Shown in pieces: positions 2,979 to 36,776 of a DNA stretch of 36,776 bases. Position 1 is the stretch's first letter, and each line of letters starts with the position of its first letter. The DNA comes from a virus. Taxonomy: Duplodnaviria; Heunggongvirae; Uroviricota; Caudoviricetes. A program made the translations under genes and the position numbers. The notes below the pieces were generated by a model. The model had not been told where the DNA came from. It saw only the letters and a program-made list of their open reading frames with translations, and did no database searches. The DNA lies in IMG/VR virus record IMGVR_UViG_2737471842_000006, positions 1 through 36,776 of that record, one strand, 5' to 3'.

Positions 2979-3362
2979 TCAGAATGGGATGGAATCGTCG
3001 TATACAGGAGTGTTCTGCTGGTTACTACTTTGCCGCTGCGGGCCATTTCCTGAAGCTGCAAATCCAATCTTTGCATTCAGTAATTCAAGAGTGATTGATT
3101 GACCATTTTGCCCCTGATAAACATCAACCCTGATGTTTTCTCCGGTAATTTCCACAATTCCACCTTCAACAAGAACACTACGGTAGTAATCCGCTTGCGC
3201 TCCCGGCTTGGCAAATACAACGGCGCTGTAGTTTGTCCATTCTTTCTTTTTTGTCTGGCGATCGTAATACTGAACGCCAGCACGGATGTTGAATCCGATA
3301 TTTTCCCCGGCCTGAAACTCTCTTGCGGGCTTGTTTAGTCTTACAGTAATCGAATGTGCCAT
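2979..3362 (-). CDS. phage single-stranded DNA-binding protein (Ea10-like), 127 aa
   Basis: MAHSITVRL... ends in a Gly/Gln-rich linker and the acidic tip DDSIPF, the hallmark SSB C-terminal motif; start ATG overlaps the erf stop (TAATG). Confidence 0.6.
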   Translation of the reverse strand: MAHSITVRLNKPAREFQAGENIGFNIRAGVQYYDRQTKKKEWTNYSAVVFAKPGAQADYYRSVLVEGGIVEITGENIRVDVYQGQNGQSITLELLNAKIGFAASGNGPQRQSSNQQNTPVYDDSIPF

Positions 3363-6240: not shown

Positions 6241-6268
6241 AAAGAAAAAAAGGGGCGAATGCCCCTTA
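6237..6268 (-). terminator. rho-independent terminator at the 3' end of c2
   Basis: Stem AGGGGC/GCCCCT with 4-nt loop followed on the minus strand by a long T-rich run; overlaps the c2 stop codon. Confidence 0.45.
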
Positions 6269-6916
6269 TGGAAGGTTTGCTATTTTTGCATCGACAACTA
6301 CACCGATGATTTTGCAGTTCCCGTTGATCTCAATCATCGGATATTGTGGGTTAAGTGGTTTTAGAAACCTTCTGCCAGCATCAATAACTAACTTCTTGAA
6401 AGTTGCCTCGTTTTCTCCTTCGAGCTTTGCCACTACCAGCTTCCCATTACGAGGTTCTACTTCAGGATCGACTAGTATTATCATCCCTTCCGGGATGCTA
6501 AGACCGGCTGGAGCCGTCATCGAATCACCCTTTACGTCCAGCCAAAACGAATCTTCTGAACAATCTACGGTTGTATCGTACCAGTTATCTATTGCACGCT
6601 TATGATATGGCTCTACAGCTTCCATCCAACATCCTGCGCTTACCCAACTAATTAGAGGATACGAACCTCTTGGATCATGCCTGCTGTGATAGGCAATGTT
6701 TGAAAGACTATCTTCTCCTTTCAACAAGTAATCAGGGGAGCACTGTAAAGCCTTGGCTAAAGCCAATAGGTTTTCGCCATTGGGCTCAGTTTCAGAACGC
6801 TCCCATTGGGAAATAGCAACATTAGACACGCCAACCATCTTGCCAAGGGCAGCCTGCCTAATCTTAAGTTCTTTTCTGCGAGCGCGAATACGCTCACCCA
6901 TCAGTTGTGTATTCAT
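6266..6916 (-). CDS. c2: c2 repressor (P22 CI-type, LexA-like autocleaving)
   Basis: 216-aa translation MNTQLMGERIRARRKELKIRQAALGKMVGVSNVAISQWERSE... is near-identical to remembered P22 C2 along its length. Confidence 0.9.
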   Translation of the reverse strand: MNTQLMGERIRARRKELKIRQAALGKMVGVSNVAISQWERSETEPNGENLLALAKALQCSPDYLLKGEDSLSNIAYHSRHDPRGSYPLISWVSAGCWMEAVEPYHKRAIDNWYDTTVDCSEDSFWLDVKGDSMTAPAGLSIPEGMIILVDPEVEPRNGKLVVAKLEGENEATFKKLVIDAGRRFLKPLNPQYPMIEINGNCKIIGVVVDAKIANLP

Positions 6917-28019: not shown

Positions 28020-29426
28020 ATGGCTACTTGGCAAGGATCAAATGGCGGATTGTTGGCTGGTATCGGCGGCGTCAACTCAAACGCTCCGAGCGTAAATGAC
28101 ATCGGCAATACGCTTCAGCTTATCAGGCAGAACAATGATATTGAGCGTTCAGGCGCTAACAATGTTGGGCTGACTGCTTTGCAAGGCCTTTCAGGTATTG
28201 CAGGGGTGTTTCAGCAGGAAAAGCAGGCTCAGCGGCAGAAAGAATTTCAGCAGGCGTACGCTAATGCTTATGCGTCTGGTGATCGCGGTGCTTTGCGTCA
28301 GTTGGCTACTCAATATCCAGACCAGATTGAATCCGTTCGTAAAGGAATGGGATTCATTGATGAAGACCAGCGTAATTCTATCGGCACCTTAGCGGCTGGC
28401 GCACGCCTTGCGTCATCGTCTCCAGAAGCAATGCAATCATGGCTGCAAAACAACGCCAAGGAACTGACTCGCGTCGGTGTTGACCCTAACAGCGTTGCTC
28501 AGATGTATCAGCAGAATCCTTCAGGATTTGGTGAGTTTGTTGATCACCTTGGGATGGCTGCGCTTGGTCCGATTGATTACTTCAATGTTCAGGACAAGAT
28601 GGCTGGTCGTGAAATTGACCGAGGCAAACTTGCAGAGACAATCCGCAGCAATCAGGCTGGAGAAGCACTTCAGGCGAGAGGGCAAAACCTTTCCTATCAG
28701 TCAGCAATGACTGGACACAATATCGCAGCACAACGCTTGGCTCTGGATCAGCAAGAGTTCGGGTTTAAGATGCAGCAAGCACAGGAAAAGGCTCAGCAGT
28801 TGATTAGCGAAGCACCTAAGCTGTCAGTAAACATGGAAAAAGGCATCGAGACGGCTGTAAACAATGCTACAGCATCATCAAACTCAGCCAATTCCATGAG
28901 TGCGCTTGCTCAACAGTTCAGAGCAGAAAAACCAACGACAGGTTTGTTCGGTAACGCACAGAACATGTTCGCAAAACTTACCGGAAGCGATACAACATTG
29001 CGTGATTTGCGCATCCGCCAAAATGCCCTTGTTAACAGTCAGGTTCTTAAATTCCTACCTCCCGGCCCCGCAACGGATAAAGACGTTGAGATCGTTCGGC
29101 AGGGTGCACCAACTGACATGGATAACCCTGAGACGGTCGCAAGATGGCTTGATGCGATGGCAAACCTTGAGCGACGAAACGCGCAGTTTAATGAGTTTAA
29201 AGCCGAGTGGATGAGCGCGAATGGCAATCCAGGACAATCGCGTAATGGCGGTCAGATATTGGGGTTGGATGTTAAAAAAGGTGAATCATTGGGGAGTGCC
29301 GTTAAGCGGTATATGTCAATGAATACTGACGCAGCGCCAGCACAAGATTCGACACCTTCAGGAGAACCACGGAATCAGGTTGGATCATATACCTCAAAAT
29401 CAGGCATTCAATTTACGGTGGAATGA
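28020..29426 (+). CDS. 20: ejection protein gp20
   Basis: 468-aa ORF in conserved position between gp7 and gp16. Confidence 0.75.
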
Positions 29427-31264
29427 TGAAAGTAACTGCAAACGGTAAGACATTTACCTTTCCTGATGGTACGAGCACCGAAGATATTGGCACCGCCATT
29501 GATGAGTATTTTGCTGGTCAGGCTGTTCAGCAACAAACAGTTAATCAGGCCAATAATGCACCAACACGGGAAGAACCATCATTGATGCAACAAGCTGGTG
29601 ATTGGCTCACAGGTGGTCAAAGTGCAGGGCAAATTGCAGAACAGGCTGGTCGTGGTCTGGTAAACATACCATTTGACGTATTGCAGGGTGGCGCAAGTCT
29701 GATTAATGCAATCAGCCAGGGGCTTGGCGGCCCCAAGGTTTTGGATGATGTTTATCGCCCTGTCGAGCGACCGACAGACCCTTATGCGCAAGCTGGAGAA
29801 ACAATTGGCGGGTATTTAGTTCCAGGAGTTGGAACGGCAGGAAGCATGGCTATTGGATCACTGGCAGAGGCCGCAAATCAGAAAGGCGATTTCGCACAAA
29901 ATGCAGCTAAAAATGCCGGAGTTAACCTTGCCGCTCAGGGTGTTCTTTCCGCAGCAGCAAAGGGAATAGGGCGTGGAATAACGGCTATAAAAGGTGATAT
30001 TGCGCCAGAAGTGGCGAAGAAAATTGCCACATCAGAATCGATGGGCGTGACACCAATGACATCTGATGTTATCCCGCCGAAAAATGCTTTCACTCGCGGA
30101 CTTACTCAGGATGCTGAGGGGGCTTTGCTCGGGACAGGCTCAAAGCGAGCTGAGCAATATGCAACGCGTAGTAAGCTGGTAAGCAATTATTTTGACCGTT
30201 TTGGTGAGTACAACCCTGATGATGTGGTGAAATCTCTTACCACCACGTTAAGGGGGCGGAAGGATGCCGCTGGCGCTGTTATCAATGACGTCACCAATAA
30301 AATGGGTAATGCCGCAGTTGATACCACAAATACCATGAATGCTCTGAATACAGCGATCGCAAGACAGGAACGGCTTGGGACGTCTGCCAATCAAAGCCTG
30401 CTTACATCCTTGCGTAACCTGCGTGAAGAATTAGCAAACCCTGCAACTGATTTGGATGTTACGTTTGATCTCTTGCGTCAGCACAGAACAGCATTTAGAT
30501 CTAATGTTCAGGGAGATGCTATGGTCTTCCCCAACCAGGCAAAAGCAGCTACCAATATGGTAGAGAATGCAATGTCAAAAGACCTTCGTAACGCAGTTGC
30601 AAAAAACCTCGGTGCGTCAGACGCAGCAAAATACCTTAAAGCAAATTCCGATTATGCAAACGTTTATAATAAGGTGCTTAATAAAAACATTGCTAACAAG
30701 CTCAACAAGGCAAGCAGTGAAGCCAGTCCTGAACTTATAAATACTGTTGTATTAAGCAGAAAACCATCTGACGTGAAACGAATCTGGAGCGCATTGGATG
30801 ATAAAGGGAAAGATGCTATGCGTGCAGCTTACGTCAGCAAAATAGCGGAAAAGGCCGGGGACTCTCCAGCCAAGTTCATCACTGAAGTTAATAAGCTGAA
30901 ATCTCAGTCAGGCGGTGAAATTTACAACACTATTTTTTCTGGAAAGCACATGAAAGAGCTTGATGCTCTTCATGAAGTTCTACAGCAAACAGCAAGGTCA
31001 GACACCGCAAATGTAGTAACTCAGACGGGGCAATCGCAAGCCAACAGGATAAGGACGATTGGCGCAACTGCGACCCTTGGCGTATCAATGGGGCTTGAGG
31101 CTGGTTTTGGTGCAATGATGCGCTTGTATGAGTCCAAAGCAGCAAGGAATGCTCTCTTACGTCTGGCAAACACTAAAGCTGGAACGCCAGCCTATGAAAG
31201 AGCGTTGAGTAACGCTGCAAATGCCATCAGGCCGCTGCTTGCTACTGAGGCAACACAGCAGTAA
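29423..31264 (+). CDS. 16: ejection protein gp16
   Basis: 613-aa ORF in conserved position; last gene of the ejection-protein trio. Confidence 0.75.
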
Positions 31265-31288: not shown

Positions 31289-31678
31289 CTAACATTTTCT
31301 TTTTACTTTTCCAACAAAAGCTTTGGTTGAATCCATATTTCCATAACCGGAAATGGTTTTTGACATTAAAACTGTTCCAGTAGGATGTATTACCCATGAG
31401 TCGATAACGCGTTGAGTTTCGCCATTCGCGCCGATTCCTATGATGGAGTTTTTAGACAATGCTTTGTAAGCCATGCCGCCCGCATCTGTCCCAGAATATG
31501 TGATGCTGGCATCTTCACCGTTTGTCTTAATGATGAATGTTCCACTAAAACCATCTTCTTCCGGATGGAAATTATTTCGTTCTGAATAGCTTATTCCGCG
31601 CATATCTCCAACGACCCAGCACTCTGCTGTAGCCCCAAAAGATATGAATAAGAACATAGCAGTAAGAAATTGCTTCAC
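31289..31678 (-). CDS. exported small protein (signal peptide, two Cys), function unknown
   Basis: MKQFLTAMFLFISFGATA-ECW...: cleavable signal peptide, mature about 111 aa with Cys at both ends; AT-rich; convergent with gp16. Confidence 0.55.
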   Translation of the reverse strand: MKQFLTAMFLFISFGATAECWVVGDMRGISYSERNNFHPEEDGFSGTFIIKTNGEDASITYSGTDAGGMAYKALSKNSIIGIGANGETQRVIDSWVIHPTGTVLMSKTISGYGNMDSTKAFVGKVKRKC

Positions 31679-31795
31679 GACAACCTCCTTAGTTTTGAGC
31701 AGGATACCATGAAAAAAGTAAACATCTTTTGCCTACTTCACATTTGAATGGTTTGTCATTAGGATGTTTCCGGTTTTTTAAATATGGAAATTGAT

Positions 31796-32215
31796 ATGAA
31801 GAGGATTATTGGCGTCGTTGCTGGCGCTATATTGTTATCTGGGTGCGCAACTATTGTTGGTGACGAAACGCAGCTTGTGCAAGTGAACAGCAATCCTTCC
31901 GGTGCGAGCTTTAAGGTAAAAGACGAATCAGGCGTGATTGTTGCGCAAGGTAAGACCCCGCAAGGAGTAACTCTTGCCAAGTCAGATGGTAGTTATTTTG
32001 GCAAAAAGAGCTACCAGATCACTATGGAAAAGGATGGGTACGAACCAGTTACCCTGCCAATCAAAGCCAATGCTAATGGCTGGTATATTGGTGGAAACCT
32101 TGTGTTTGGTGGGTTAATTGGTTGGCTTGCTGTAGATCCTTTTAATGGTGGGATGTATACCTTCAAGCCAAAAGAGGCAAACGCATCTCTTATGCCATCA
32201 ACAAAGCAAGACTAA
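31796..32215 (+). CDS. lipoprotein with PEGA-like domain and Gly-rich C-terminal hydrophobic segment; alternative start 31784
   Basis: MKRIIGVVAGAILLSGC lipobox; NPSGASFKV...GKTPQGVTL...DGYEPVTLPI resembles PEGA motifs; C-terminal GGNLVFGGLIGWLAV. Confidence 0.55.
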   Translation: MKRIIGVVAGAILLSGCATIVGDETQLVQVNSNPSGASFKVKDESGVIVAQGKTPQGVTLAKSDGSYFGKKSYQITMEKDGYEPVTLPIKANANGWYIGGNLVFGGLIGWLAVDPFNGGMYTFKPKEANASLMPSTKQD

Positions 32216-32223
32216 TAAATAGG

Positions 32224-32247
32224 ACCCACCTTCAGGTGGGTTTTTTG
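32224..32247 (+). terminator. rho-independent terminator after the lipoprotein gene, overlapping the mnt 3' end
   Basis: Stem ACCCACC/GGTGGGT with loop TTCA followed by TTTTTTG. Confidence 0.5.
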
Positions 32248-32483
32248 TACAAATCCTTCAGCGTATCAAACACCATCTTCTTAACAAGCTCTGACTGCTC
32301 ATCAGCGAGTCGTTCTGCATCGTCGCGATATCCAGTCACAGGCGATGGTTTTGATAGAGCATCTTGGACGATTTGTAACAACTCGGAGTTCATTGATCTC
32401 CCATTCGCCTCCGCCCTGAATTTTAATTTCTCCCTTACTTCCATAGGCATACGGAAGTTAAAGTGCGGATCATCTCTAGCCAT
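32232..32483 (-). CDS. mnt: Mnt repressor (immI)
   Basis: 83-aa MARDDPHFNFRMPMEVREKLKFRAEANGRSMNSELLQIVQDAL... matches remembered P22 Mnt. Confidence 0.85.
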   Translation of the reverse strand: MARDDPHFNFRMPMEVREKLKFRAEANGRSMNSELLQIVQDALSKPSPVTGYRDDAERLADEQSELVKKMVFDTLKDLYKKPT

Positions 32484-35669: not shown

Positions 35670-36776
35670 CTACTTGTTAAACCTGCACTCTATGTGTTTA
35701 TAAGTAAATGCAGATGCTAAGATCGTTATTGAAAGACAAATCACAGAGTATATTATTAACTGAGTTGTGTTTGTTTCAGACAGATTAACAAACTTAGAGG
35801 CTATTCTGTAAAATACATGCAGCACTGGTTGATGCAGTAAGTAAATGCTATAGCTAATTTCCCCTAAGAAAGCGATAGACGGAATGCTTAATAACCTTGG
35901 TTTTAGCACAACGCAAGACGCAAACATAAGTGATATCATGATAAATCGATAAAAGCTATATTGTTTTACATCGAAATAGAATGACATATAAAACAAAAAC
36001 GCAAAAACTATATATATAACTGCTCTAAGTGATGTTTTTTCTATGTTTATTTCTTTGATTTTTGCGCAAAGAGCCCCAGCTACAAAGTACGACCACAACA
36101 CTTTATCTTCATAGAAATCGTTGATCAATACAAAGCACCCAAAAGCAATTACCATGTACTTGAATTTTTTAGTATAGAGAGCAGTCGCTAAGAATGGGAT
36201 AGATGCATAAAACTTCCACTCATATGGGAGTGTCCACAATACTATATTTAAAGTAGCATCTCTATGTTCGCCCCAGTATAGCTCAGTTCCAAAAAAACCA
36301 AACCCAAATATTTTAAGTAATTGAGTGACAAATAAAGGAAGGTCTAATTTCCCTAACATCTGTGAAAAATATATTATAGATATTAAAGTAGCGGTAAATA
36401 GATATAATGGAACTAATCTCTTTATTCTTTTTGCGTAAAATGATGTAAAGTCTATTTTATTATTTGAAAGTATTTTTGAAGAGAACAGAAATCCAGTTAT
36501 GCAAAAAAATATCTGAACACCCAAGGCACCAGATTGGCTGAAAAGATAAAAGTTAGAGTAATCAATATTCTTAGTTTTTATCAACATATCACCAATGGCG
36601 TAAGCAGAGTGGTTGATGAAAACGGCGATACATGCAAAACCCCTGAGTCCTTCAATGTACTGAATTTTGCCCTGATCTGTAGACTTTCTAATGAAAATAG
36701 ATGTTGCCATTATTGGTACAGCAAGCATGACCAAATAGATGCAAAAGAAAGACAATGGGTAGTTATAAAGCGGCAT
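35670..36776 (-). CDS. integral-membrane acyltransferase (acyltransferase-3 / O-antigen acetylase family); start codon at the last three bases of the window
   Basis: 368-aa ORF, multi-pass hydrophobic, strongly AT-rich; resembles OafA/Oac-type O-acetyltransferases; sits where P22-like phages keep serotype-conversion genes. Confidence 0.7.
   Translation of the reverse strand: MPLYNYPLSFFCIYLVMLAVPIMATSIFIRKSTDQGKIQYIEGLRGFACIAVFINHSAYAIGDMLIKTKNIDYSNFYLFSQSGALGVQIFFCITGFLFSSKILSNNKIDFTSFYAKRIKRLVPLYLFTATLISIIYFSQMLGKLDLPLFVTQLLKIFGFGFFGTELYWGEHRDATLNIVLWTLPYEWKFYASIPFLATALYTKKFKYMVIAFGCFVLINDFYEDKVLWSYFVAGALCAKIKEINIEKTSLRAVIYIVFAFLFYMSFYFDVKQYSFYRFIMISLMFASCVVLKPRLLSIPSIAFLGEISYSIYLLHQPVLHVFYRIASKFVNLSETNTTQLIIYSVICLSITILASAFTYKHIECRFNK

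Follow-up and report, generated by a model that had tools for sequence, protein, structure and literature searches.

By its sequence, one of the two genes that occupy the sieA position of an Escherichia coli P22-like prophage belongs to the phage 434 Hex family as a divergent member, and its divergently oriented neighbor encodes an unrelated lipoprotein. The prophage was analyzed over a stretch of 36,776 nucleotides (the window), and the two genes are referred to here as orfA and orfB. On balance, we think it probable that this part of the prophage is a cargo hot spot whose two lysogenic-conversion genes are independent and have separate histories; of these, orfA would encode a periplasmic Hex-type exclusion factor and orfB an outer-membrane lipoprotein. 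The homologies, the export signatures, the independent assortment of the genes and the prophage transcription of an orfB orthologue are shown directly, whereas the periplasmic location, the exclusion activity and target of orfA and any activity of orfB are inferred.

A first-pass annotation of the window had reported a divergent pair of genes for exported proteins between the ejection genes and immI, and both open reading frames are present as described (Table 1). In P22 the slot is taken by sieA, a minus-strand gene 23 bp past gene 16; orfA lies on the same strand, 24 bp past the gene 16 homologue. The latter carries the annotation "P22-gp16 family phage DNA ejection protein" in a near-identical E. 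coli prophage, and the same 613-aa gene has been assigned PF26808 in related loci. On the other side, the pair is bounded by a terminator that it shares with mnt: the hairpin itself (32224 to 32241) follows directly on the orfB stop codon, with the T-run after it, and overlaps the mnt 3' end. The epsilon34 record has a rho-independent terminator annotated at the equivalent place. The insert had also been called visibly AT rich. Its GC content is 0.41 across 31300 to 31900, against 0.50 immediately to the left and 0.44 to 0.45 to the right, but this AT-richness is modest, and the 3' third of gene 16 is likewise at 0.40 to 0.43. A tblastn search of the window with P22 SieA returned no P22-type homologue (best E value, 3.8, with the P22 type of SieA as the only query). 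Both genes were taken as real because they belong to conserved families and because an orfB orthologue is transcribed.

Table 1. Features of the cargo slot and its borders (window coordinates)
Feature	Position	Strand	Basis
P22 gp16-family DNA-ejection protein, 613 aa, last late-operon gene ahead of the cargo slot	29423..31264	+	ORF
orfA, 129-aa predicted exported protein, divergent phage 434 Hex/Sf6 gp38 family (phrog_2651)	31289..31678	-	Homology and P22 layout
Predicted Sec signal peptide of orfA, residues 1-18, MKQFLTAMFLFISFGATA, cleaved before E	31625..31678	-	Hydropathy, Cys positions, family-wide conservation
Divergent intergenic region, 117 bp, mosaic junction	31679..31795		Ends of the Emek and epsilon34 matches, alignment
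Shine-Dalgarno sequence TAAGGAGGT for the orfA GTG start	31683..31691	-	Read from the sequence
Candidate orfB promoter TTCACA-17-TAGGAT, 9/12 matches	31737..31765	+	Consensus match only
orfB, 139-aa lipoprotein (epsilon34 gp15/Gally GALLYPH_14/WP_000821222 family, phrog_6823)	31796..32215	+	Homology
orfB lipobox L-S-G-C, residues 14-17, Ala at +2	31835..31846	+	Sequence; Cys17 and Ala18 invariant in 52 homologues
orfB beta-sandwich, transthyretin/PEGA/CnaB-like, residues 25-93	31868..32074	+	AlphaFold model, confident
orfB conserved Gly-rich hydrophobic motif NGWYIGGN..FGGLIGW..VDPFNGGMY, residues 94-121	32075..32158	+	Family alignment
Hairpin terminator ACCCACC-TTCA-GGTGGGT and T-run, ends the orfB transcript, overlaps the mnt 3' end	32224..32247		Sequence and epsilon34 annotation
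mnt (Arc-family repressor), start of immI (arc, ant, then tailspike)	32232..32483	-	ORF and homologous records

Inspection of the primary structure of the orfA product confirmed the signal peptide and terminal cysteines reported at first pass. A short charged n-region (MKQ) is followed by a hydrophobic core, FLTAMFLFISFGA, and an A-T-A/E cleavage site, and this N-terminal stretch is the only hydrophobic one in the protein. There are two cysteines: Cys20, which together with Trp21 lies directly beyond the predicted cleavage site, and Cys129, the last residue. A disulfide probably joins the second mature residue to the C-terminal residue, and the protein is predicted from these features to be located in the periplasm as a soluble protein of ~12 kDa. 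A lipoprotein was ruled out by the lack of a lipobox. Searches of PDB sequences and profiles returned no homologue of orfA, and a single-sequence AlphaFold2 model was unusable (mean pLDDT, 40.7).

Neither protein had been matched to a nameable family. For orfA, a family was found by tblastn against 2.3 Gb of phage DNA, which retrieved 434 Hex, Sf6 gene 38 and homologues in HK446, HK633 and Sf101 over the full length at 27 to 28% identity (E values, 2e-5 to 5e-4). Pairwise BLASTP of orfA with Hex gave an E value of 3e-12 over 133 columns, with 27% identity. Both proteins matched phrog_2651 (E values of 2.9e-61 for orfA and 1.4e-58 for 434 Hex), and hhalign of the orfA and Hex subfamily alignments gave a probability of 99.6% and an E value of 7e-24. 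The two are of the same size, share a signal peptide followed by Cys-Trp and a C-terminal ending of the form FVG-x-V-x(2,3)-C, and are carried by prophages in a slot expressed during lysogeny. With only 27% identity between them, the specificity of orfA may differ from that of Hex.

Seventy diverse sampled members of the family were aligned. A hydrophobic N-terminal core and a first cysteine just past the cleavage site were present in every member. Residue -1 was A, S or G in 63 of the 70, a C-terminal cysteine was present in 69, and the number of mature cysteines was even, 2 or 4, in every member. A Pfam search with the 70 proteins returned no family. From these signatures, the Hex family looks exported.

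Such hallmarks are hard to reconcile with the published mechanism. The only biochemical study of Hex (PMC3564112) assigns the 434 protein a cytoplasmic role as a "repressor protection protein" which hinders RecA-stimulated autocleavage of the repressor and stabilizes lysogeny. In that study, spontaneous induction was recA dependent and ~30-fold higher in hex- lysogens, and a 61-residue Hex fragment inhibited the cleavage of 434 and P22 repressors in vitro. The window prophage also has a repressor-sized ORF of 216 aa (6266 to 6916). However, every sampled family member has a signal peptide of the cleavable type and paired cysteines, and a protein sent out of the cytoplasm has no access to RecA or cI. 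Export is never considered in PMC3564112; the words "signal," "periplasm" and "membrane" are absent from its text. Full-length Hex was toxic, the active fragment was derived from fusion or guanidine purification, and the stable fragment begins at Glu43 of the authors' 158-aa ORF, which is the first residue past the predicted cleavage site. Genomic context also argues against an anti-RecA function: orfA is unlinked to the repressor gene in the window, and its Aeromonas relatives are found in integrase/resolvase islands, where the called neighbors include no HTH or S24 repressor gene. We therefore regard it as very unlikely that orfA acts on RecA-stimulated repressor cleavage.

Hex-type genes directly follow cI, overlapping the S24 repressor gene at its end, and Hex is transcribed from PRM. 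In contrast, orfA is found in the sieA slot, with gene 16 (to which it is convergent) on one side and mnt on the other; elsewhere, genes of its type are found in mnt-rap1a-orfA operons. The difference is one of genomic context and does not concern the protein itself. In these other prophages, orfA adjoins a Rap1a-type T6SS immunity gene, which could point to a non-phage target.

The exclusion phenotype of the family comes from the genetics of Hex, whose name stands for "heterologous exclusion." According to the account given in PMC3564112, it was so named for shutting P22 out of Salmonella lysogens: Salmonella lysogenic for lambda imm434 excludes P22, and this exclusion is missing from hex- lysogens. 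The first-pass proposal of envelope-level exclusion thus gains a homologue defined genetically by P22 exclusion for orfA, but does not extend to the pair as a system. The original 1980 paper of Susskind and Botstein aside, we found no literature on Hex beyond PMC3564112 and none on the orfB lipoprotein, and the literature found does not state the stage at which Hex blocks P22.

The position of orfA invites comparison with SieA, which PMC10883804 describes as an inner-membrane protein with predicted transmembrane helices and as a block to the DNA-delivery conduit of gp7, gp20 and gp16. The two genes share slot and orientation and are prophage-expressed cargo, and the SieA and Hex families are both tied genetically to P22-type exclusion. 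They differ in that orfA has no sequence similarity to SieA and only the N-terminal hydrophobic stretch of a predicted soluble protein; orfB, likewise, has only a signal peptide and a weakly hydrophobic segment. In the explanation we favor, orfA would be a superinfection-exclusion factor working in the periplasm, most plausibly on the step at which incoming P22-like phages cross the envelope or deliver their DNA, and would serve as a functional stand-in for inner-membrane SieA in SieA's own slot. A more far-reaching proposal is offered only tentatively, and we would call it possible but on the unlikely side. The Hex family, orfA included, might consist of small periplasmic, disulfide-locked proteins that halt P22-like phages in the envelope, for example, by binding the gp20/gp16/gp7 conduit or the tail needle. 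By the same proposal, orfA would be a soluble SieA analogue moved into the sieA slot, the 2013 anti-RecA mechanism would be an artifact, and orfB would, separately, be a conserved outer-membrane lipoprotein which temperate phages of several morphotypes have recruited to a place near their DNA-delivery genes and which alters the envelope.

The orfB product had been described as a 140-aa lipoprotein. By its sequence it is a lipoprotein, but its length is 139 aa from the ATG at 31796; an upstream in-frame ATG at 31784 would give 143 aa, and 31796 is the likely start because homologues begin at this MK(R/K) position. The lipobox noted at first pass is present, of the form [LVI][ASTVI][GAS]C, and closes the signal peptide with no Asp at +2, as expected of a bacterial lipoprotein processed by Lgt, LspA and Lnt. 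The residue after the lipobox cysteine directs Lol sorting, and the orfB product is predicted from its sequence signals to be sorted to the outer membrane.

PEGA-like motifs had previously been suggested for orfB. The match to PF08308 is weak (E value, 0.0037; 17.6 bits versus a gathering threshold of 20.8), and the predicted beta-sandwich is compatible with PEGA. The fold is generic and without functional implication, and the C-terminal Gly-rich motif is not part of PEGA. Within the family this motif is conserved more strongly than any other block, and model confidence is low there (pLDDT, 51 to 65). It had been likened to a glycine zipper. The segment is indeed rich in glycine and hydrophobic, but its 19-residue Kyte-Doolittle mean (approximately residues 95 to 113) is only ~1.3, low against the ~1.6 usual for a membrane-spanning helix, and a true transmembrane helix was considered unlikely.

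Profile searches and structure prediction, which the first-pass annotation had recommended, placed orfA in the Hex family and gave orfB its beta-sandwich, but did not uphold the suggested likeness to Cor, Llp or MliC/PliC, for which there was no fold or profile match. The assignment of orfB to Cor (phrog_1119) was rejected, as the match (E value, 0.0034) was confined to residues 1 to 20 and reflects the lipoprotein signal peptide alone. Neither Llp nor an FhuA complex was among the matches listed in the fold search, and orfB had no informative structural or profile match and no PDB sequence homologue. Searches of Pfam, NCBIfam and PADLOC with both proteins gave no lysozyme inhibitor (MliC/PliC/Ivy) or anti-phage defense match at an E value of <=1. 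The C-terminal motif of orfB had a sub-threshold match to LEPBI_I2678 in NCBIfam (26 bits versus a cutoff of 240). Cor (phi80/N15/HK022) and T5 Llp are outer-membrane lipoproteins with which these phages inactivate the FhuA receptor. The resemblance of orfB to them is by analogy only: it is a small, prophage-expressed phage lipoprotein with outer-membrane sorting signals, encoded near tail or DNA-delivery genes. There is no homology, and orfB is larger, combines a beta-sandwich with a Gly-rich motif and has chromosomal family members.

orfB is the orthologue of epsilon34 gp15, with 96 to 99% identity to that protein and to GALLYPH_14 of Gally. Both orthologues occupy the same position upstream of mnt and have the same terminator; their leftward neighbors differ and are unrelated to orfA (epsilon34 has an hkcB-like gene there, and Gally has a 171-aa ORF). 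The NCBI name for WP_000821222 is [quoted passage not shown] The family is well conserved (54 to 80% identity), with 672 matches across Enterobacterales and Pasteurellaceae. Some relatives are prophage cargo, located between the tail chaperone and tape-measure genes or between gpI and gpJ, and other copies in Enterobacter and elsewhere are chromosomal and not in prophages. The family is thus found outside mobile elements, which speaks in part against the first-pass proposal, but it is uncharacterized and not a housekeeping one. In the explanation we favor, the family resides in enterobacterial chromosomes, and temperate phages have taken it up more than once, next to tail or DNA-delivery genes.

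Transcript data were available for the orthologue in LF82. In the B1, B6, MB1 and MB6 samples (four conditions), GALLYPH_14 reached log2 fpkm values of 9.4 to 11.0, compared with 3.6 to 4.1 for the adjacent ejection gene and 9.9 to 12 for the C2 repressor. Expression was low in overnight LB (log2 4.8 to 6.2), and the macrophage-versus-LB comparison gave a log2 fold change of 3.84 (q, 1.4e-31). To judge by the LF82/Gally orthologue, orfB is transcribed from the prophage and separately from the late operon. The earlier proposal that the slot is expressed from the prophage therefore stands for orfB through this orthologue, and for orfA it is implied by the mnt-rap1a-orfA operons found elsewhere.

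The first-pass annotation had read the two genes as one co-functional envelope-level exclusion module driven from a common divergent promoter region. They are indeed neighbors in divergent orientation, separated by the 117-bp spacer that it described, export is predicted for both products, and 45 complete E. coli genomes carry this exact pair, with at least 98.6% identity among the matches listed. However, most carriers have only one of the genes: among 5,426 E. coli genomes, orfA was found in 147, orfB in 124 and both in 45. Phage records with orfA and no orfB, and the reverse, also exist, and each gene has several alternative neighbors. In Emek, UPEC129 and many prophages, orfA is paired with other cargo or lies in the mnt-rap1a-orfA operon; orfB has the unrelated leftward genes of epsilon34 and Gally, and its relatives are solitary in siphovirus tail operons and in chromosomes. 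As the genes assort independently, we conclude that they are two separate morons, and we consider a single module highly improbable.

The spacer is itself a mosaic, with breakpoints inside it. By alignment, the initial ~30 bp move together with orfA and the remainder with orfB; the Emek match stops at about 31709 of the window, and the epsilon34 match begins at about 31681. The orfA GTG start lies 4 nt past its Shine-Dalgarno sequence, in a leader that also precedes a different leftward gene in epsilon34 and is partly kept in Emek. The -10 element of the candidate orfB promoter is TAAGAT in Gally, where the orthologue is transcribed. A promoter scan of the spacer for orfA yielded no candidate above threshold.

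We also considered that one or both genes serve the host, orfB as a Bor/Lom-like fitness or virulence lipoprotein and orfA as a periplasmic inhibitor or immunity protein against non-phage envelope attack (T6SS or lytic enzymes). Consistent with this notion are the rise of the orfB orthologue from overnight LB to the B1, B6, MB1 and MB6 samples, the chromosomal copies and the cotranscription of orfA relatives with a Rap1a/Tai-family immunity gene. The conservation of the orfB family points the same way, unlike the fast-evolving SieA, whose types share <30% identity (PMC10883804). Against it, the sole genetic phenotype known in the orfA family is, in the account of PMC3564112, phage exclusion. 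The searches of Pfam and NCBIfam matched no immunity family, and orfB has been inserted repeatedly next to DNA-delivery or tail genes, across four prophage architectures. The exclusion lipoproteins Cor and Llp are likewise encoded beside such genes. We judge host service fairly improbable as an account of the slot, although for orfB the chromosomal copies and the induction in cell culture and macrophages are no less compatible with a role in host fitness than with exclusion. In the favored explanation of two independent cargo genes, the orfB lipoprotein may bind a conserved envelope component and might thereby mask a receptor or contribute to host fitness.

These results correct the reading of the slot from an undescribed two-gene system to a pair of ordinary morons, each mobile on its own, in a position well known to be variable. 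The orfB family gene is highly expressed in the most active prophage of the Crohn's-associated strain LF82, a prophage that the original analysis classed as moron free. A "hypothetical" protein carried by 147 of 5,426 complete E. coli genomes is now tied to the Hex family, and only a small number of prophage genes have, like hex, a classical exclusion phenotype. The export hallmarks of the family call its published mechanism into question, and existing P22 tools, namely ejection-protein hybrids and SieA escape mutants, make the mechanism of Hex exclusion directly testable.

The window represents an E. coli prophage of the P22-like (Lederbergvirus) type. A 1.4-kb segment spanning orfA (a 129-aa ORF) and orfB (a lipoprotein ORF) is carried by 45 complete genomes; among these, the match in the chromosome of E. 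coli strain 19451123 was 99.9% identical, and the remaining full-length matches listed were at least 98.6% identical. orfA lies 24 bp past the gene 16 homologue, on the minus strand; in P22, the superinfection exclusion gene sieA likewise is on the minus strand, 23 bp past gene 16. No homologue of P22-type SieA or of ORF59a was found in the window. A 117-bp spacer separates orfA from orfB, and the terminator that follows orfB is annotated identically at the corresponding place in epsilon34. Checking of the coordinates and of the P22 layout confirmed the first-pass annotation's description of the ORFs, spacer, terminator and sieA position, and both ORFs are genuine genes. Its description of the interval as a visibly AT-rich insert needs softening: the GC content is 0.41, a mild bias only that is matched at the end of gene 16. 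At the far end of the window, the GC content is 0.30 to 0.34 downstream of the tailspike gene (GC profile 35800-36700); related prophages (L034 to L037) carry acyltransferase, hexapeptide-repeat, glucosyltransferase or integrase genes at the post-tailspike position.

Features of the gene 16-mnt interval and its surroundings
Feature	Position	Strand	Remark
gp16-family ejection protein	29423-31264	+	
orfA, 129 aa	31289-31678	-	
Leader of ~30 bp, including the Shine-Dalgarno sequence TAAGGAGGT	31679-31709		about 2499-2530 in locus L001; about 3080-3110 in locus L002
orfB, 139 aa	31796-32215	+	
Hairpin terminator	32224-32241, plus T-run		3' of orfB, overlapping the end of mnt
mnt, Arc-family repressor	32232-32483	-	
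arc, ant, tailspike			downstream of mnt
368-aa ORF	35670-36776	-	reaches the last base of the window

orfA starts with a GTG codon 4 nt past TAAGGAGGT. The RefSeq version of an orthologue (L003:3190-3558) is shorter (122 aa) and corresponds to a start at Met8, which would remove the charged start (n-region) of the signal peptide. The GTG 21 nt upstream of Met8 has a near-perfect Shine-Dalgarno sequence and restores the n-region, and close homologues have an MK start at the equivalent position. Searches of Pfam, NCBIfam and PADLOC gave no match to orfA; it does match phrog_2651 (E = 2.9e-61). When 50,697 phage records were searched in translation, two Salmonella phages, Emek and ST-35, proved to carry nearly identical copies, and full-length matches at 27 to 28% identity were found in phage 434, lambda imm434, Sf6 (gene 38), HK446, HK633, Sf101, Huey and Chlobot. 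In the latter phages the relative is the gene adjoining the repressor; that of phage 434, annotated as "repressor protection protein," is hex. The 434 Hex protein also matches phrog_2651 (E = 1.4e-58), pairwise BLASTP aligned it with orfA over the whole length (E = 3e-12), and profile-profile comparison of the two subfamily alignments gave a probability of 99.6% (E = 7e-24). The claim that orfA belongs to no nameable family was therefore wrong. Sequence homology, which is solid, makes orfA a new and divergent addition to an exclusion family that is known but poorly understood.

The name Hex stands for "heterologous exclusion," and hex and cI form one transcript from PRM (Shkilnyj et al. 2013, PMC3564112). 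In the account given there, citing Susskind and Botstein (1980), Salmonella lambda imm434 lysogens exclude superinfecting P22 and hex- lysogens do not. Because orfA belongs to this family, the earlier guess of an exclusion function gains homology support for orfA, though not in the form of a novel paired system. The role proposed for Hex is cytoplasmic, namely that a fragment of the protein prevents the 434 and P22 repressors from undergoing RecA-stimulated cleavage. The same paper reports that overexpressed full-length Hex is toxic (PMC3564112). It never raises a signal peptide or export, although a signal peptide is present in each of the family members sampled here.

A profile built from both subfamilies was searched against 1.84 billion proteins, and 191 clusters (50% identity representatives) were found, nearly all of 120 to 140 aa. 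Searches of Pfam, solved structures and defense-system models revealed none that covers members of the family. Scoring of a 70-member sample for an export signature found a hydrophobic N-terminal core and an invariant cysteine, one residue past an AxA-like site, in every member; position -1 was A, S or G in 63 and a C-terminal cysteine was present in 69, while the mature cysteine count was 2 or 4 throughout. The family looks like Sec-exported, disulfide-bonded periplasmic proteins, and this signature disfavors the alternative that orfA and Hex protect the repressor in the cytoplasm. Translation of the 434 locus (L015:1929-2405) showed that the 158-aa reading frame of the published study has 24 extra N-terminal residues relative to the 134-aa protein. 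Glu43, at which the stable fragment sHex begins (PMC3564112), is therefore Glu19 of the 134-aa Hex, the first residue past the predicted signal-peptidase site between ANS and ECW. The sHex start offers incidental support for processing at this site, and may be a coincidence, since the fragment was derived from a cytoplasmic MBP fusion.

The first-pass annotation had joined orfA and orfB in a candidate two-gene exclusion module. In a set of 5,426 complete genomes of E. coli, orfA was present in 147, orfB in 124 and the contiguous pair in 45. Epsilon34 has orfB and the entire spacer but a hkcB-like leftward gene, in Gally/LF82 orfB is beside a 171-aa leftward ORF, and in Emek orfA is beside unrelated rightward genes. 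An alternative setting of orfA includes a Panacea-domain gene and ClpP. The two genes thus assort independently, which argues against a two-gene module, and the evidence does not support reading the pair as a novel exclusion system. In E. coli ETEC1747, a truncated orfA adjoins a Rap1a/Tai gene, and in many P22-like prophages mnt, rap1a and orfA lie in that order on one strand with abutting coordinates (L034 to L037, 4399-5390), an arrangement suggestive of an operon driven by the mnt promoter; orfA of these loci also is 24 bp from a 613-aa gp16. Rap1a proteins (PF18602) are periplasmic immunity proteins against T6SS effectors. This neighborhood suggests that orfA could be a non-phage periplasmic immunity protein, and is the sole pointer to that role.

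Mosaic breakpoints fall within the orfA-orfB spacer, such that the ~30-bp leader accompanies the leftward gene, and the rest of the spacer accompanies orfB. The same leader precedes orfA in both the window and Emek, and the hkcB-like gene in epsilon34; it looks like a boundary for the exchange of cargo genes. The breakpoints and varied neighbors therefore mark the gene 16-mnt interval as a cargo hot-spot, consistent with the "ant moron" description (PMC2629481) and with the presence of sieA in only 22 of 66 P22-like phages (PMC10883804).

orfA occupies the sieA slot, belongs to the Hex family and has export signals. After export, the protein would be free in the periplasm, held closed by a disulfide between Cys20 and Cys129, and may act at the envelope against superinfecting phages. 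In P22-like phages, gp7, gp20 and gp16 form a periplasm-spanning conduit, on which SieA acts (PMC10883804). Since SieA acts on the conduit and Hex excludes P22, the most economical hypothesis is that orfA blocks conduit assembly or the passage of the needle and ejection proteins; it is held tentatively, as less likely than not. A generic role, in which orfA excludes some phage, is likelier and is roughly an even call.

orfB is 96 to 99% identical to epsilon34 gp15, Gally GALLYPH_14 and one vB_EcoP-720R6 gene, and its family comprises 672 matches in Enterobacterales and Pasteurellaceae. Alignment of 52 homologues (54 to 80% identity) revealed two nearly invariant blocks, the lipobox with the residues just after it (C-A-T-I-V-G) and NGWYIGGN..FGGLIGW..VDPFNGGMY. 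The AlphaFold2 model from this alignment has a confident beta-sandwich (residues 25-93), a low-confidence Gly-rich helical segment and a terminal hairpin; fold searches returned only generic transthyretin/CnaB/PEGA-like sandwiches. In E. coli lambdoid prophages (listed in 710 index blocks), relatives separate the tail chaperone genes (G/T) from the tape-measure gene; in Proteus prophages, three of four loci have a relative immediately upstream of the tape-measure gene. Another lambdoid prophage type has a relative flanked by gpI and gpJ, and an Actinobacillus prophage has one close to Q and an antirepressor. In Enterobacter, relatives are at ordinary chromosomal loci, and a longer form is found elsewhere. 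The orfB product is an already known hypothetical lipoprotein, conserved and repeatedly captured by phages.

In E. coli lambdoid siphovirus prophages L005 to L010 (e.g., strain ED1a), the homologue at the tail position is 67% identical; in most of them an inserted porin gene (PF00267) separates the gpM- and gpL-like tail genes. gpL is followed by a ClpP gene and, in L006, also by an Arc-family repressor and an antirepressor. A 129-aa homologue (80% identity) encoded by two Enterobacter genomes (L029 and L030, 5001-5390) is in a conserved chromosomal, non-prophage setting, with an aldehyde dehydrogenase/ABC-transporter operon on one side and TehB-like, GhoT/OrtT and SrfB/Virul_Fac genes on the other.

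Transcription of the orfB orthologue GALLYPH_14 (L004:2511-2930) was assessed in published RNA-seq data for E. coli LF82 (PMC9928086, Tables S1 and S4), expressed as log2(fpkm+5). Values were 6.2 and 4.8 in overnight LB, 9.8 and 10.2 in B1, 10.5 and 10.2 in B6, 11.0 and 11.0 in MB1, and 9.4 and 9.5 in MB6 (bacteria in THP-1 macrophages at 6 h; B1, B6 and MB1 are the source's sample labels). Across all ten samples the adjoining ejection gene GALLYPH_12 gave 3.6 to 4.1 and the C2 repressor 8.9 to 12.0, which places GALLYPH_14 among the most highly transcribed Gally genes outside overnight LB (MB6 versus LB, log2FC 3.84, q = 1.4e-31). Its transcription is independent of the late operon. Gally was described as lacking morons (PMC9928086) because only the overnight-LB data with a 5-fold cutoff were used, and GALLYPH_14 was missed. 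GALLYPH_13 (L004:1891-2406) and GALLYPH_14, divergent and by mnt, were at log2 7.9 to 11.0, versus ~3.6 to 4.1 for flanking late genes, in four of five conditions.

orfB has lipoprotein signals, is strongly conserved and, as its Gally orthologue, is expressed from a prophage. Its +2 residue is Ala, so it would be placed in the inner leaflet of the outer membrane, where its invariant motifs may bind a conserved envelope component. The benefit could lie in receptor masking, in the manner of Cor and Llp, or in host fitness, in the manner of Bor; the conservation of the family, the existence of chromosomal copies and the pattern of induction tilt us slightly toward host fitness. The strong, overlooked prophage expression of the orfB family in LF82 is worth carrying forward, as is the export signature of the Hex family, which is in tension with the published cytoplasmic mechanism.
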